A DNA stretch of 4,421 bases from a virus (lineage: Duplodnaviria > Heunggongvirae > Uroviricota > Caudoviricetes): the IMG/VR virus record IMGVR_UViG_2537562020_000009. One strand, 5' to 3'. The translations under genes were made by a program, and so were the position numbers. The notes under the pieces were generated by a model that was not told the origin of the DNA, ran no database searches, and worked only from the letters and a program-made list of their open reading frames with translations. Positions 2 through 4,421 of the stretch are shown here, piece after piece (within the stretch, counting starts at the first letter, position 1; each line of letters begins with the position of its first letter).

Positions 2-307
2 CGGAGGACAGTTGTGGCGCACGTTTTCGGTGAACGCACTCTGGCCACACTGGCGCGTCTTCTGAGCCTGCTGTCGGCCTTTGAGGTCGTGGTATGGATG
101 ACGGATGGCTGGCCGCTGTATGAATCACGCCTGAAGGGAAAGCTGCACGTTATCAGCAAGCGTTACACTCAGCGCATTGAGCGACATAATCTGAATCTGA
201 GACAACATCTGGCAAGGCTGGGACGGAAGTCACTGTCGTTCTCAAAATCGGTGGAGCTGCATGACAAGGTCATCGGGCATTATCTGAACATAAAACACTA
301 TCAGTAA
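2..307 (+). CDS. insB: IS1 transposase InsB, C-terminal part (5' end outside window)
   Basis: The translation (...[70 protein letters not shown]) is the recognisable InsB C-terminus. The frame is open from the window edge and the TAA stop at 305-307 lies inside the terminal repeat, as in IS1. Confidence 0.9.
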
Positions 308-322
308 GTTGGAGTCACTACC
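300..322. repeat. IS1 terminal inverted repeat (insB-proximal end) of the left copy
   Basis: The reverse complement ggtagtgactccaacttactgat matches the IS1 end motif and pairs with 4101-4123 (ggtaatgactccaacttattgat) in inverted orientation. Confidence 0.85.
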
Positions 323-343
323 CCGCGATTTGAACGAGAAGGT

Positions 344-1393
344 TTGCTGATTGAAGGACAGAGAACAAACTATTTCAGAAATTCAAATACACCAGAAGCA
401 TGGAATAACACGGGTAGTGTGTCTGTTGAGTCGTTCGACAGTGATAAGGGGTTTAACTATGGAAGGATAACTGTTATTAATGAAAATCCGACAGCACAAG
501 GATATCAGGCAATTGCTGTAAACACGAATGATGCTTACACCTGCCCGGCAGGTTCTTATACGACGATATCGTGTCTGACGAAAAGTGATAATTCCCGGTG
601 TCGTGCAAGGTTCGGAAAAATGTCTGATAATGGTGCGTTTGTTTTTCATTCAGATGCAGTTCTGGATCCTGTTACGGGAAATGTTGTTCATGGAAATAAT
701 GTGACGGTGACGGCAGAAAGAGTCGGTGAATGGTGGTTGTTTACCGCCACTCTTTTTGCAGATGCGGAAATGATAATCAGCTCAAGATTTGAAATCCTGG
801 CGATGCCTGGAATCAGTATTATCCCCAATGGCTCTACGTTAGATATTGCGATGCCTCAGGCGGAGATTGGGTCGTACAGGACGTCATTTATCATTACTGA
901 AGGGGCTCCTGGCACTCGCTCCAGCGACATGGTGACAATACCTGTAAGAAACAATATTCACCGATTACCATTCAGTGCTCTTGTTGAAGTTAATAAAAAC
1001 TGGGATATCCCTCCCAGCAAATCACCATTAATCTTTAATGTTAAAGATTATCAGGAAAATGGTCTGTTCACGCATGGATTCCGTGGTAATAATTTCTCTG
1101 ATGCCGGTTCTCCTTTTATTTCTATGGGAGGGTGTAATAAATATGTGGCAACAACCCAGAGGAAAATCATTTCAGGCTTCCGTTGTGGCGCTGATGGAGA
1201 TGTTCAGGCCGTATGTAATGGTGAATTATCTGTTGCGGCAAAAACAACATGGACTTCAATTGTTCCACGGGCAGTATTGCGAATTGGAGGGCAGGGCACT
1301 AATGGGGAGTATCATCTTTTTGGTCATATCCGTAATCTGCGTATCTGGCATAAAGAATTAACTGATGCGCAAATGGGGGAGAGTATTAAATGA
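344..1393 (+). CDS. Putative phage tail-fibre / receptor-binding protein, C-terminal portion; 5' end apparently truncated by the IS1 insertion (frame open back to 323, first usable start is TTG at 344)
   Basis: The 349-aa ORF is in frame with no stop all the way back to the IS1 boundary at 323, has no ATG near its 5' end, and its N-terminal sequence reads like protein interior. Its C-terminus (...LRIGGQGTNGEYHLFGHIRNLRIWHKELTDAQMGE) resembles a lectin-like (LamG / concanavalin-A-type) distal domain as found in phage receptor-binding proteins. It is followed by translationally coupled tail-fibre-type genes. The family assignment is from pattern recognition only. Confidence 0.5.
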   Translation: MLIEGQRTNYFRNSNTPEAWNNTGSVSVESFDSDKGFNYGRITVINENPTAQGYQAIAVNTNDAYTCPAGSYTTISCLTKSDNSRCRARFGKMSDNGAFVFHSDAVLDPVTGNVVHGNNVTVTAERVGEWWLFTATLFADAEMIISSRFEILAMPGISIIPNGSTLDIAMPQAEIGSYRTSFIITEGAPGTRSSDMVTIPVRNNIHRLPFSALVEVNKNWDIPPSKSPLIFNVKDYQENGLFTHGFRGNNFSDAGSPFISMGGCNKYVATTQRKIISGFRCGADGDVQAVCNGELSVAAKTTWTSIVPRAVLRIGGQGTNGEYHLFGHIRNLRIWHKELTDAQMGESIK

Positions 1394-1671
1394 AAGATTT
1401 AACACTCAAATTTGCAGACAGGGCCGACTTTTCGGCCTTTATGGAGAGTATTGGCTATTATGATGACGAGTCGATGCAGGATGATATTCTTATTGACGTG
1501 ATAGGTAACGTGTACAAAGAAACCGGAGAACTGACTGAAGATGGCGAACCGGTATGTGTTAAGGAAGACGGATATTTTGTAAACGTGCGCATCATTAATG
1601 ATGTAAAAAAATCGTCAATATTCGATAAATACGCGGTTGTTGTTGAGCATCAACTTCGTGGCTGGATGTGA
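1390..1671 (+). CDS. Small acidic hypothetical protein (93 aa), phage-associated
   Basis: Its ATG overlaps the upstream stop (ATGA at 1390-1393) and a G-rich Shine-Dalgarno (gggggag, 1376-1383) precedes it. Composition is strongly acidic (about 20 D/E against 10 K/R by count). I recognise no family. Confidence 0.55.
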   Translation: MKDLTLKFADRADFSAFMESIGYYDDESMQDDILIDVIGNVYKETGELTEDGEPVCVKEDGYFVNVRIINDVKKSSIFDKYAVVVEHQLRGWM

Positions 1672-1680
1672 GGGAGACAA

Positions 1681-2385
1681 ATGGCTACATCGACAGTAAT
1701 TCCAGGAGATATCACCACGCTAAAGGGAGATGTCAGTAAAACTAAGGAAGATATTTCCTCAATTAACGGAAAAGTATCAACGCTTCAGACTGATATGACC
1801 AGTGCAAAGCAGGATATCAGCACCAGATACACAAAAACTGAAGTTGATAATAAGCTGAAAAACAAACTGGAAGTGAACGATCTGGAAAGCGGTCGTTATG
1901 GTGGAGATTTTTACCCGTTGACTGGCCGTGAAGCGTTTTATATGTGGGGATTGGGCACGACTACAGCGGCGGCAAACCTTTATCTTAATCCTGACCCTGC
2001 AATTTCGTCTGTACTGCGGTCAACATCGTCTATTCGCTATAAACATTCAGTAGAGACGATAGATTCAGAGCACGCCGATCTCATTTTCAGGATGCGCCCT
2101 GTGTGGTACAGGTCGCAATGCGAAAATGACAGGCGTGACTGGGGATTCTACGGATTGATTGCCGAGGAAGTAGGAGAAATTGCCCCTCAGTTTGTACACT
2201 GGCGACCAGCTAACGAAGATGATGCTCCTGAAGCTATTTCCAGCAATGGCCTTGTTGCCGAAGGTGTAATGTACGAACGTCTGGTTGTTCCACTGATTCA
2301 CCATATCCAGAAGCTGACTGAAAGAGTTGATGAACTTGAGTCAGAATTAAAGTTGTTATCCGTTTCCCGAAGCGATATCGGATAA
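1681..2385 (+). CDS. Short tail-fibre-domain protein with C-terminal intramolecular chaperone / autoproteolytic domain (peptidase S74-like)
   Basis: The C-terminal ~120 aa show the characteristic pattern of endosialidase / T5 L-shaped-fibre chaperone domains: S-I-R-Y-K-H-S-V-E-T-I-D (Ser/Lys region), then DLIFRMRPVWYR, then GLIAEEVGEIAPQFV, then GVMYERLVVPLIHHIQKLTERVDELESEL. The N-terminal ~60 aa are a low-complexity repetitive S/T/K/D segment (DITTLKGDVSKTKEDISSINGKVSTLQTDMTSAKQDIS). An AGGGAG Shine-Dalgarno lies at 1671-1676. Confidence 0.7.
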   Translation: MATSTVIPGDITTLKGDVSKTKEDISSINGKVSTLQTDMTSAKQDISTRYTKTEVDNKLKNKLEVNDLESGRYGGDFYPLTGREAFYMWGLGTTTAAANLYLNPDPAISSVLRSTSSIRYKHSVETIDSEHADLIFRMRPVWYRSQCENDRRDWGFYGLIAEEVGEIAPQFVHWRPANEDDAPEAISSNGLVAEGVMYERLVVPLIHHIQKLTERVDELESELKLLSVSRSDIG

Positions 2386-2395
2386 AGGAGGAGTA

Positions 2396-2689
2396 ATGGA
2401 TATAACACCTTTCCTTCATGCGCTTTGTGCTGTGGCTGCGCAGCTACTGATTGGTCTTTTTACCGGGAACTGGGCTTACGGGGCGATAGCCGGTTGTACG
2501 TTCTTCATTGCGCGTGAACACACCCAGGCAGAATATCGCTGGATCGAAATGTTCGGGCATGGCAAGCGAATGAATATGCCGTGGTGGGGCGGTTTTGATA
2601 CACGTGCATGGGATGTGGCAAGCCTGATGGATTTTGCTGTGCCGGTGGTGGCGTGTCTGCTGGTCTGGCTGTTGGTTAATCGTGGGTGA
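2396..2689 (+). CDS. Small hydrophobic (2-3 predicted transmembrane segments) membrane protein, 97 aa; function unknown
   Basis: A strong Shine-Dalgarno (AAGGAGG, 2385-2391) sits 4 nt upstream of the ATG. Two long hydrophobic stretches (LHALCAVAAQLLIGLFTGNWAYGAIAGCTFFIA and VASLMDFAVPVVACLLVWLLV) flank a charged, aromatic-rich loop. It is preferred over the antisense ORFs at 2444-2790, which lack such signals. Confidence 0.6.
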   Translation: MDITPFLHALCAVAAQLLIGLFTGNWAYGAIAGCTFFIAREHTQAEYRWIEMFGHGKRMNMPWWGGFDTRAWDVASLMDFAVPVVACLLVWLLVNRG

Positions 2690-2820
2690 AAAAAGGTGAG
2701 CTGTATATGCAACGGAGGAAGAAAACTCGTTGCTGGAAGCCTGGAAAAAGTATCGGGTGCTGCTAAACCGTGTGGACACTTCCGTAGCACCAGATATCGA
2801 GTGGCTTATTCAACCATAAT

Positions 2821-3364
2821 AAACAGTATGTATATCATAGGTTATTAATTGTGAGTTTTTTCGGTGTGTTATTTGTTTGTTTGATGTTATGCTTTTGCGC
2901 CCCAAAAGGTTGTTTAGATGTATTTTATCAATTGATTTTCAATGTCGTTTAATAAAGAAAAATTAAGCAAGCTGGATGTTGGTTTTTTGTTAATTGAATG
3001 GTTCTAATAATGTTTTTTTACTGTTGTTGAATGTGACTTGATAAGAAATGCAAGTAAAAATGATACTCTTTTTATTTTAAATTCAAACGGTTGACATATA
3101 TATAGCAAGAGGTTTCAGGTGCGTTGTAGTGAGTTTATGTTAATAAAAAGTATAGTAAGCGTTGAAAAATGTAACTTTGAAATACGTTAGAATAAAAAAC
3201 AATATACATATAATAATTTAATCTTAAATGAAATTTATTAAAATTTGCAAACTATAATTTTGTGTATAAAAATATAAATGCACATCATCCTGATTATGAT
3301 TGTGTATTTAATTGGTTGTTATTTGACTGCTATCAACTTGTTTTAATTTTATGATAGGTGCAAG
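2821..3364 (+). promoter_or_regulatory. Extremely AT-rich intergenic regulatory tract upstream of the AraC-family regulator (candidate promoter and nucleoid-protein binding region)
   Basis: Hand count gives 136 G+C in 540 bases (about 25%), with many A/T tracts. Contains a perfect TATAAT at 3209-3214 (weak -35 candidates only), a TTGACA at 3091-3096 without a good -10, an ArcA-box-like 15-mer at 3139-3153 (11/15 to GTTAATTAAATGTTA), and an AGGTG Shine-Dalgarno at 3356-3360 for the downstream gene. Exact promoter positions are not determinable from sequence alone. Confidence 0.45.
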
Positions 3365-4105
3365 ATGGATTATGTTTGCTCCGTAGTTTTCATCTGTCAA
3401 TCATTTGATTTAATTATAAACAGGAGAGTTATCTCGTTCAAAAAAAATTCATTGTTTATTGTAAGCGACAAAATTAGAAGGGAGTTACCAGTATGCCCCT
3501 CTAAACTAAGAATTGTTGATATAGATAAGAAAACATGTTTATCCTTTTTTATCGACGTGAATAATGAGCTGCCTGGCAAATTTACTCTTGATAAGAATGG
3601 CTATATTGCTGAAGAGGAACCTCCATTATCGCTTGTTTTTTCTCTGTTTGAAGGGATTAAAATAGCAGACTCACACTCCCTTTGGTTAAAAGAAAGACTA
3701 TGTATATCCTTACTTGCCATGTTCAAAAAACGCGAAAGTGTAAATTCATTTATACTAACAAATATAAATACATTTACCTGTAAAATTACTGGAATAATCA
3801 GTTTTAATATTGAGCGGCAATGGCATTTAAAAGATATTGCGGAATTGATTTATACGAGTGAAAGTTTAATAAAAAAAAGATTAAGGGATGAAGGAACGTC
3901 ATTTACTGAAATATTGAGAGATACTAGGATGAGGTATGCAAAAAAACTCATAACTTCAAACTCTTATTCTATCAATGTCGTAGCCCAGAAATGTGGCTAT
4001 AACAGTACTTCATATTTCATATGTGCATTTAAAGATTATTATGGTGTCACGCCATCTCATTATTTTGAGAAAATAATCGGCGTCACAGATGGAATAAACA
4101 GGTAA
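3365..4105 (+). CDS. appY: AraC/XylS-family transcriptional activator, AppY-like; the final codon and stop codon are supplied by the adjacent IS1 end
   Basis: The C-terminal ~100 aa form a typical AraC-type double helix-turn-helix region ([44 protein letters not shown]...[29 protein letters not shown]). The N-terminus [21 protein letters not shown] matches my recollection of E. coli AppY. The gene is low-GC with an AGGTG Shine-Dalgarno, and the ORF ends ...GINR-stop, where the AGG codon spans the junction (4100-4102) and TAA (4103-4105) lies inside the IS1 end. Confidence 0.7.
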
Positions 4106-4123
4106 TGACTCCAACTTATTGAT
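4101..4123. repeat. IS1 terminal inverted repeat (insB-proximal end) of the right copy
   Basis: ggtaatgactccaacttattgat is the canonical IS1 end sequence, inverted relative to 300-322. Confidence 0.85.
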
Positions 4124-4421
4124 AGTGTTTTATGTTCAGATAATGCCCGATGACTTTGTCATGCAGCTCCACCGATTTTGAGAACGACAGCGACTTCCGT
4201 CCCAGCCGTGCCAGGTGCTGCCTCAGATTCAGGTTATGCCGCTCAATTCGCTGCGTATATCGCTTGCTGATTGCGTGCAGCTTTCCCTTCAGGCGGGATT
4301 CATACAGCGGCCAGCCATCCGTCATCCATATCACCACGTCAAAGGGTGACAGCAGGCTCATAAGACGCCCCAGCGTCGCCATAGTGCGTTCACCGAATAC
4401 GTGCGCAACAACCGTCTTCCG
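4116..4421 (-). CDS. insB: IS1 transposase InsB, C-terminal part (5' end outside window)
   Basis: The minus-strand translation (...[68 protein letters not shown]...NIKHYQ) is InsB. The frame is open to the window edge and the stop lies at 4116-4118. Confidence 0.9.

Follow-up and report, generated by a model that had tools for sequence, protein, structure and literature searches.

The locus considered here raises a simple question: do four co-directional genes at positions 323 to 2,689 of a viral DNA belong to one tail-fibre operon, and what place would a membrane protein have at its end? The DNA (hereafter the window) is the whole 4,421-nucleotide (nt) stretch of the IMG/VR record IMGVR_UViG_2537562020_000009, assigned to the Caudoviricetes. 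An initial annotation, made from the letters of the sequence, had proposed a single operon-like module combining a fibre fragment, a small acidic protein, a short S74-domain fibre and a membrane protein positioned like a phage moron. We conclude that 323-2689 probably closes the late (virion) operon of a lambdoid prophage of the DLP12 type, as its distal end, and that this end is a mobile cassette for what is most likely a two-part side tail fibre, together with an accessory membrane gene. The four genes, with product lengths in amino acids (aa), are as follows.

323..1393, + strand: gene 1, 3' fragment of stf, a side tail fibre gene of lambda type, comprising 356 codons and the stop, with a GTA-head-spike-fibre-like part and a concanavalin/LamG-like C-terminus
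1390..1671, + strand: gene 2, 93-aa acidic protein (isoelectric point, pI, 4.3), conserved small partner of this fibre type; phrog_1361
1681..2385, + strand: gene 3, read as a 234-aa minimal distal fibre, with a putative docking N-terminus (MATSTVIPGDITTLK), a coiled coil and a C-terminal S74 chaperone
2396..2689, + strand: gene 4, 97-aa three-helix membrane protein with the invariant loop REHTQAEYRWI…MPWWGGFD (aa 40-68); phrog_1443

Four coupled genes in conserved order

The four open reading frames (ORFs) run from 344 (open from 308) to 1393, from 1390 to 1671, from 1681 to 2385 and from 2396 to 2689, and a Shine-Dalgarno sequence is present at each of the three junctions. Genes 1 and 2 overlap by ATGA at 1390-1393, which can be read directly from the sequence, with GGGGGAGAG at 1375-1383, 7-15 nt upstream. 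The stop codon of gene 2 (TGA, 1669-1671) lies within GAGGGAG (1670-1676), and the ATG of gene 3 follows at 1681 after a gap of 9 nt. Gene 3 ends with TAA at 2383-2385, AAGGAGG occupies 2385-2391, and gene 4 begins with ATG at 2396 after a gap of 10 nt. The distances of 10 and 11 nt originally given for the last two junctions are stop-to-start counts and are equivalent to these gaps. In a consensus scan we found no + strand promoter-like or terminator-like site from 1393 to 2689, in agreement with the earlier statement that no terminator separates the genes; + strand terminator-like matches within the module are weak and confined to gene 1 (667-751).

The arrangement recurs well beyond the window. 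We retrieved 80 IMG/VR loci with the 93-aa protein, 72 of which extend far enough to be evaluated, and gene 4 follows gene 3 in every one of these 72 prophage loci. The gene 3 allele encodes 227-234 aa in 48 of them, with a gap of 10-25 nt to gene 4, and 345/346 aa in another 23, with a gap of 42-45 nt that holds a hairpin terminator; the last locus has a disrupted (prematurely terminated) 346-aa allele. The cultured phage PhiR49_1 has the order J-lom-stf(812 aa)-93-234-97, with the same junctions as the window. Judged by this shared order and spacing in 72 of 72 evaluable loci and in cultured phages, the four-gene arrangement is beyond chance, and the four co-directional genes with coupling signals that had been described at the outset are borne out by the ORF list, the junctions and the recurrence.

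Genes 2, 3 and 4 match full-length PHROG families: phrog_1361 (E = 2e-46), phrog_3299 (profile positions 1147-1384 of 1385, E = 2e-140) and phrog_1443 (E = 3e-58), respectively. The initial annotation would have been contradicted by a place for the two small ORFs in unrelated, well-characterised families; both instead fall in PHROGs of unknown function that are syntenic with tail fibres. Median ratios of nonsynonymous to synonymous substitution (dN/dS) of 0.26, 0.14 and 0.13 for genes 2, 3 and 4 (21-41 distinct alleles) indicate purifying selection on these genes, with the proviso that the values compare phage alleles and that selection inside the remnant is a different quantity.

The locus thus has the usual marks of an operon: all four genes lie on one strand, their junctions overlap or are short, the scan shows no promoter or terminator inside, and the order is conserved across genomes. 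For the ancestral phage locus, the description as one operon-like tail-fibre module is fair, being supported by the conserved synteny and by the junctions in active phages. The proposal of one transcriptional unit therefore stands for that ancestor; it does not demonstrably hold for the window itself, which is a dead remnant cut off from its late promoter.

A probable two-part fibre shared by temperate and virulent phages

The product of gene 1 is 100% identical to residues 426-781 of an intact 781-aa protein of strain 20AR0300 (L003:10726-13071), whose gene directly follows a remnant of the tail-tip gene J. Residues 1-94 of the intact allele match the lambda-type tail-fibre anchor PDB 9e7m (E = 5e-47); this tail-anchoring N-terminal domain is missing from the window copy, which begins at residue 426. 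What is left matches phrog_1419 'tail protein' at profile positions 433-793 of 793 (E = 5e-100) and the NCBIfam model NF048003 GTA_spike_fiber at 69.3 bits (cut-off 36; residues 2-193 = profile 1-181 of 182), and the last 57 residues, at the C-terminus, give a weak Laminin_G_3 match (16.5 bits vs a gathering score of 27.6). A Pfam scan found no S74 domain in the Stf product. We also found no intact tfa partner downstream of gene 1, just a 36-codon 3' remnant at 2709-2822.

Gene 1 is therefore a fibre fragment, as first described, but the start of its span is not that of a gene: it lacks an authentic start because 323 is the first base after the end of an IS1 copy (arm 2-322). No stop interrupts the frame from 308 onwards but it is closed before that, and the insertion has merely made the TTG at 344 the first codon resembling a start; this TTG is incidental. 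As it stands, the window cassette is non-functional as a fibre, the first 425 stf codons having been lost to IS1 and the late promoter cut off. The stop codon of insB (TAA, 305-307) lies on the same strand and in frame with the truncated fibre ORF, whose opening is five codons further on; read-out from IS1 or read-through of this stop codon could therefore express the fibre fragment.

Homologues of the gene 1 product end the fibres of several other phages. It is 43% identical over its length to the proximal lateral fibre gp22 of Bas32 (IrisVonRoten, Tequintavirus), where it corresponds to the C-terminal ~430 residues, and it is homologous over its full length to the ends of the phage 21 Stf and of the Bas05 and ESCO3 fibres. 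The end of the 1,479-aa lateral fibre of an rV5-like myovirus is 34% identical to it, and that phage has the small protein as well. Among prophages, the Stf C-terminal domain is 34-41% identical to that of the window in 57 of 75 IMG/VR loci, at about 3880-5000 in the coordinates of loci L014-L093, with adjacent 93-aa, S74 and membrane genes at least 87% identical; exchange of the receptor-binding end is thus independent of the genes downstream.

Gene 2 encodes a small acidic protein, as had been stated (pI 4.31). A tblastn search with it returned 183 phage records, among them lambdoid phages, Drexlerviridae, Dhillonvirus, Queuovirinae, T5-like and rV5-like phages, and in these records the gene always adjoins a (lateral) tail fibre gene. 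The protein is at least 91% identical across loci whose Stf ends are 34-41% identical. It has no match in Pfam, including the tail-fibre assembly family, in NCBIfam or in PADLOC. Its AlphaFold2 (AF2) model, with a predicted local distance difference test score (pLDDT) of 81, has an alpha/beta fold for which we found no informative structural neighbour, and sequence and profile searches of the PDB gave no match. From its position, that is, its invariable adjacency to the fibre in at least five phage groups, we infer that it is an assembly factor or connector.

A longer version of this protein may exist elsewhere. In Pantoea (L117:4484-4999) and Comamonas (L122:4432-4998), an ORF of 171-188 aa lies immediately upstream of a homologue of the membrane protein, and its N-terminal ~90 residues match phrog_18574, the second PHROG matched by the 93-aa protein. 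By this profile match, these proteins are longer relatives of the small fibre partner.

The S74 label of gene 3 is confirmed by a PF13884 (Peptidase_S74) match of 27.1 bits (cut-off 22; residues 116-172 = profile 1-57 of 58). The domain aligns to residues 952-1068 of DT57C LtfA (PDB 8hqz_d, E = 1.6e-7), and the coiled-coil repeats align to LtfA residues 444-506. The Ser-Lys dyad is intact (S116-S-I-R-Y-K121): S116 and K121 are invariant in comparison with the Bas05, ESCO3, Bas32 and PhiR49_1 homologues, and SSIRYK occurs in every 234-aa allele. The mature product is accordingly predicted to consist of residues 1-115 after self-cleavage before Ser116. Alleles of 231, 234, 346/351 and 574 aa share the N-terminus M.T.TVIP.DI..LK, the S-x-x-x-x-K dyad and G-x-IA-E/Q, G158-x-IA being invariant among them, and all their length differences fall between the N-terminus and the chaperone domain, in an inserted middle part. 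The N-terminal 32 aa also match positions 1-32 of phrog_4563 'tail fiber protein', and their sharing with other tail-fibre families suggests a docking module. Gene 3 had been called a short S74-domain fibre; the S74 domain is there, but the minimal distal subunit of a side tail fibre in two parts is a better reading of the gene than a short fibre standing by itself.

A close known counterpart is found in Bas32, in which gp22, gp23 and gp24 stand in the same order, with a 4-nt overlap and then a 9-nt gap. With 92 aa and 38% identity, gp23 is homologous to the 93-aa protein of the window, and gp24 has the N-terminal motif MxTxTVIPxDIxxLK and an S74 domain, like gene 3. In published work AlphaFold-Multimer modelling made gp24 a T-shaped distal fibre that joins onto gp22, the proximal one, and the C-terminal domain of gp22 was called 'galectin-like' from its predicted structure (PMC11990801). 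Bas32 differs in being virulent and T5-like, with a T5-type anchor instead of a lambda-type one and no membrane-protein gene after gp24, and its gp24 has 574 aa with two receptor-binding domains, compared with the 234-aa stub here. Genes 1-3 have the same order and the same type of junctions in Bas32 (T5-like), Bas05 (T1-like) and ESCO3 (Nonagvirus), the first junction being a 0-4 nt overlap or an abutment (0-2 nt) and the second a 9-12 nt gap. The comparison shows that a single type of cassette, that of genes 1-3, is shared between lambdoid phages, which are temperate, and virulent phages of the T1-, T5-, Nonagvirus- and rV5-like groups. The gene-level features of a two-part fibre cassette of the Bas32 kind (gene order, fibre C-terminus, MxTxTVIP N-terminus, S74 C-terminus and coupled junctions) are present in the window.

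Other systems share parts of this plan. Two-protein branched fibres have been established genetically for DT57C (PMC4728585, PMC10713586), in which the L-shaped fibres likewise consist of two separately encoded proteins, LtfA and LtfB, the second attached via the first. In DT57C, however, both proteins are long receptor-binding fibres with low sequence identity to gene 3 outside the chaperone domain, and the available portions of these accounts describe no small 92-aa partner. Lambda Stf and Tfa occupy the same position after J/lom, the same N-terminal anchor is found in the intact stf allele, and a 3' remnant of tfa follows the cassette; here, in contrast, a GTA-spike-like part and a LamG-like end have replaced the receptor-binding half of Stf, and in place of Tfa there are the 93-aa protein and the protein with the S74 domain. 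Endosialidases and the L-shaped fibre pb1 of T5 also carry a C-terminal Peptidase_S74 domain with a Ser-(x4)-Lys dyad, but the passenger of gene 3 is just 115 residues, mostly coiled coil, and not a long beta-helical fibre or spike. For the 92-aa and 97-aa proteins themselves, the literature yielded just general accounts of lateral tail fibre loci and two-part fibres.

The membrane protein behind the receptor-binding genes

Gene 4 encodes a membrane protein, as first proposed: the AF2 model (pLDDT 92) has three helices (4-23, 26-53 and 74-96), in agreement with hydropathy. Among 29 homologues down to 55% identity, 27 columns are invariant and are concentrated in the REHTQAEYRWI…MPWWGGFD loop. 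Searches of Pfam, NCBIfam, PADLOC and the PDB gave no match for the protein, and among known exclusion or defence families none resembles it in PADLOC and profile searches. A profile of the family searched against 1.84 billion representatives matched 432 cluster representatives at 50% identity; among the 150 matches listed of these 432, all are stand-alone proteins of about 58-142 aa, with no domain fusions. Members range from Escherichia to Comamonas, Aeromonas and Sphingomonas.

The family accompanies receptor-binding genes of several kinds. In phage 21 and in the 108-kb PhiR41_1, gene 4 follows Stf and the 92-aa gene, with no gene 3; in Gally, which is P22-like, the tailspike gene and a terminator precede it and int comes after it; in the Hapunavirus phiHAP-1 it follows tfa. 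In a P2/HP1-like prophage of Aeromonas the preceding gene encodes a tail fibre with an S74 end; in Comamonas it is gpJ and, in enteric prophages, the gene of a 555-aa protein that itself follows gpJ. We also examined 48 loci in species-representative genomes, from which 20 upstream proteins, picked by a crude script, were scanned against PHROGs; some of these neighbours are fibres with the same C-terminus (Comamonas, Chelativorans) or 93-aa-like proteins (Pantoea, Comamonas).

The initial annotation had offered a phage moron, for example a superinfection-exclusion or receptor-masking factor. Several observations suit a moron. The gene has a G+C content of 0.534 and a third-position G+C content (GC3) of 0.54, compared with 0.40-0.45 and 0.35-0.41 in genes 1-3. 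It is present in PhiR49_1, phage 21 and PhiR41_1 but not in the virulent Bas05, Bas32 and ESCO3, despite the same fibre cassette, and some homologues are separated from the fibre gene by a terminator. In the 345/346-aa gene 3 alleles (L038, L040, L056 and 20 other IMG/VR loci, ~6330-6375) this terminator is a perfect hairpin, GGGGCCGAGCGCCCC, followed by TTTTATT, and a different ribosome-binding site precedes the same membrane gene; the gene 3/gene 4 boundary is therefore a recombination joint. The other mark of a moron, a promoter and a terminator of its own, is not seen in the window. In Gally the AT-rich spacer has one promoter-like match, which is weak (9 of 12) and does not exceed what shuffled sequence gives. 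The moron idea thus holds in part, and gene 4 is best read at present as a passenger resembling a moron, possibly one that acts in exclusion, although in our estimate the case is only evenly balanced.

Receptor masking, by contrast, finds no support. Lysine and arginine are distributed at 5.5 in the conserved loop and 0.6 or less on the other side, and the loop is predicted to be cytoplasmic; masking of a surface receptor is disfavoured for this reason, and we rejected it as a mechanism. Cor (phi80/N15) and Llp (T5) do lie, like gene 4, directly beside a receptor-binding protein gene, but they are outer-membrane lipoproteins that mask a porin-type receptor, and gene 4 has three membrane spans and no lipobox or cleavable signal in the model.

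HK97 gp15, T4 Imm and P22 SieA are membrane proteins that exclude superinfecting phage. Gene 4 shares with this group a small helical membrane product, a place within the virion gene block of temperate phages or at its end, and a variable presence among relatives. HK97 gp15 is annotated as a 'moron product' and has its own terminator inside the tail operon, unlike gene 4, which has neither promoter nor terminator of its own in the window. A relationship to gp15 was tried and rejected (hhalign probability 0.2%). Cognate exclusion genes have been described next to the receptor-binding protein loci of small siphoviruses (BASEL paper, PMC8594841).

The proposed assembly and what weighs against it

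In the reading that we prefer, a horizontally mobile cassette would have taken the place of the second half of stf and of the beginning of tfa. The Stf trimer would be anchored to the tail by the lambda-type N-terminal domain seen in the intact allele and lost here, and would end in a GTA-head-spike-like domain and a LamG-like one, both assigned by homology, the latter being probably glycan-binding. The 93-aa protein, made by translational coupling after Stf, would serve as assembly factor or connector for the C-terminal end of the fibre. The 234-aa protein would trimerise via its own S74 domain, whose intact dyad suggests self-cleavage before Ser116, and the remaining 115-residue coiled-coil stub would dock by its invariant N-terminus onto the proximal fibre, as the literature models of Bas32 suggest. 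The 97-aa membrane protein would not be part of the fibre but an accessory gene behind the receptor-binding genes of temperate phages, its product most likely sitting in the inner membrane of the lysogen or infected cell and, for example, excluding superinfecting phage. Present-day transcription at this locus would need read-out from IS1.

A number of observations pull the other way. The operon label itself derives from spacing and conservation alone. The 92-aa protein is kept in phage 21 and PhiR41_1, both of which are without gene 3, so it cannot be a connector only. A mature gene 3 product of 115 residues leaves almost no room for receptor binding and may be a cap or a vestige. In the window and in 48 of the 72 loci, a gap of just 10-25 nt with a strong Shine-Dalgarno sequence couples gene 4 to gene 3, as in a bona fide late gene, and the consensus scan found no promoter-like site upstream of it and no terminator-like site between 2689 and appY. 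The predicted cytoplasmic side of its loop also counts against the proposal. Finally, distant homologues that match mainly in the loop have neighbours other than fibre genes: in PS1, a jumbo phage of Aeromonas (L100:3429-3692), the neighbour is helicase/terminase-like, and others lie beside NAD-dependent DNA ligase (ligA-like) genes in alphaproteobacterial metagenome-assembled genomes (L142, L148); the family is therefore not exclusively linked to fibres.

A bolder version joins two claims that are independent of each other. The 97-aa protein may represent a new inner-membrane family for exclusion or envelope modification that acts via the invariant loop, and the 93-aa protein may be a universal assembly factor or connector, serving lateral fibres with a lectin end across five or more groups of coliphages. 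Temperate phages of siphovirus, myovirus and podovirus type would then carry the membrane gene behind their receptor-binding genes to protect the lysogen. We hold the two claims together only tentatively.

Alternative explanations

The best of the alternatives, which we nevertheless consider doubtful, is that gene 4 is a true late-operon gene for lytic growth, involved in fibre handling at the membrane or in late protection of the cell or progeny, and not a moron expressed in lysogeny. The 10-nt gap with AAGGAGG and the lack of an upstream promoter-like site are what a late gene would show, and ATGA-type overlaps precede its homologues in phiHAP-1 and in Aeromonas and Chelativorans prophages. 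Homologues in virulent jumbo Aeromonas phages and the strong purifying selection (dN/dS 0.13) fit as well. On the other hand, the virulent phages with the same fibre cassette do without gene 4, an intrinsic terminator stands between it and the fibre or tailspike gene in Gally and in 23 of the 72 loci, the receptor-binding proteins that it follows are of three kinds without structural relationship, and its GC3 is unlike that of its neighbours. The accessory gene remains the preferred reading of gene 4.

It is improbable that gene 3 encodes a stand-alone, trans-acting chaperone, which would fold the Stf trimer and then be discarded without becoming a fibre subunit. The Bas05 homologue is annotated in GenBank as a 'putative lateral tail fiber chaperone', the 231-234-aa alleles contain little beyond the coiled coil and the S74 chaperone domain, and some folding aid would be expected for an Stf that has neither an S74 domain nor an intact tfa after it. 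However, alleles of 346/351 and 574 aa in the same position have the same N-terminus and chaperone with a further domain in the middle, and the 574-aa allele has been modelled as a receptor-binding distal fibre (PMC11990801). S74 domains are described in Pfam (PF13884) as intramolecular, with the upstream polypeptide as their target, and the first 32 residues, being common to annotated tail-fibre families (phrog_4563), suggest docking. Phage 21 has the same type of Stf without gene 3, so this Stf can fold alone. The distal subunit remains our reading of gene 3.

A decayed prophage remnant in Escherichia coli

By megablast against 5,426 complete E. coli genomes, the window maps to the DLP12-type prophage at tRNA-Arg, between nohD and appY-ompT-envY. 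Identity reaches 99.4-100% in enterotoxigenic E. coli (ETEC) O6:H16 and other strains, and at least 80% of the window is retained in 80 complete genomes. By this placement, the window is a decayed DLP12-type prophage remnant of E. coli. The following features surround the four genes.

2..322, + strand: 3' part of an IS1 copy, with the C-terminal 97 codons of insB at 14-307 (PF03400 DDE_Tnp_IS1, E = 6e-51)
2709..2822, + strand: 3' remnant of tfa (36 codons plus stop; 'tfaX'-like pseudogene), in RefSeq 'tail fiber assembly protein, incomplete, missing N-terminus'
3365..4105, + strand: appY (AraC-family activator; HTH_18, HTH_AraC; annotated appY in RefSeq genomes), outside the module
4101..4421, - strand: 3' part of a second, divergent IS1 in inverted orientation; inverted-repeat arm, with an ORF at 4116..4382 (-) for the InsB C-terminus

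The fibre gene is truncated by the first IS1 copy, whose terminal inverted repeat ends at 322. The exact IS1/stf junction (273-372) has no match in the 5,426 complete E. coli genomes or in the GTDB species-representative genomes. In ETEC strains the same fibre gene is truncated otherwise, by a fusion at window position 467 with a fragment of a terminase; stf has thus been broken independently at least twice. A further IS1 within the same stf gene of strain PKF8 (L004:12828-13525), in the opposite orientation, is another independent disruption. On the right-hand side, the same tfa remnant lies ~22 nt downstream of gene 4 in many prophage loci; its position marks what we take to be the right-hand scar of the replacement of the stf 3' half and the tfa 5' part by the cassette.

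Have genes 2-4 been kept in the cryptic prophage to serve the bacterium, for example in phage resistance, with transcription from IS1 or a fortuitous promoter? We regard this as quite unlikely. Genes 2-4 are intact at a locus where gene 1 was truncated at least twice (IS1 at 323, terminase fusion at 467), the insB frame runs into the module on the same strand with its stop in frame with the fibre fragment, and 80 complete genomes keep most of the window. The retained copies are, however, 99.6-100% identical, so intactness may merely reflect recent common descent, and the dN/dS values were measured among phage alleles and not within the remnant. There is no match to known defence families in PADLOC, and E. 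coli strains without these genes at the locus are common, PKF8, for example, having the further IS1 disruption. Decay of an ordinary prophage remains the preferred account of the locus. That the small ORFs are chance open frames with coincidental coupling signals can be dismissed: frames of 93 and 97 codons can arise randomly and neither matches Pfam or NCBIfam, but this is refuted by the full-length PHROG matches (E = 2e-46 and 3e-58), 227-453 database homologues, confident AF2 models, dN/dS of 0.26 and 0.13 and positions conserved in dozens of phages.

This type of cassette has already been drawn in the phage genomics literature, and the locus is a decayed ordinary copy of it. In itself it is of small importance, being part of a cryptic prophage unable to build tails. 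One cassette that circulates among temperate lambdoid and virulent phages is nevertheless relevant to host-range engineering and to the reading of prophage fibre loci. The comparison also singles out two small, strongly conserved proteins, chiefly the membrane protein with its invariant loop behind the receptor-binding genes. If this protein were an exclusion or conversion factor, it would be a common and easily recognised marker among prophage-encoded resistance genes in enterobacteria.

Some minor observations concern the rest of the window. The two IS1 arms (2-322 and 4101-4421) form an inverted repeat that is 90% complementary, so that two partial inverted copies, merely 90% alike, stand at both ends. 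The window could be a short-read contig that ends in repeats, or a composite-transposon-like segment with appY and the fibre remnant. An Rfam scan of the window gave no match. The 540 bp upstream of appY (2823-3364) have 25% G+C, by far the minimum of the window, and contain several promoter-like matches on both strands. The right IS1 is inserted at the extreme end of appY (4092-4105), and the last codons and the stop come from the IS1 inverted repeat. AppY here has 246 aa and ends in GINR, compared with 249 aa in strain PKF8 (GINK and three more residues).

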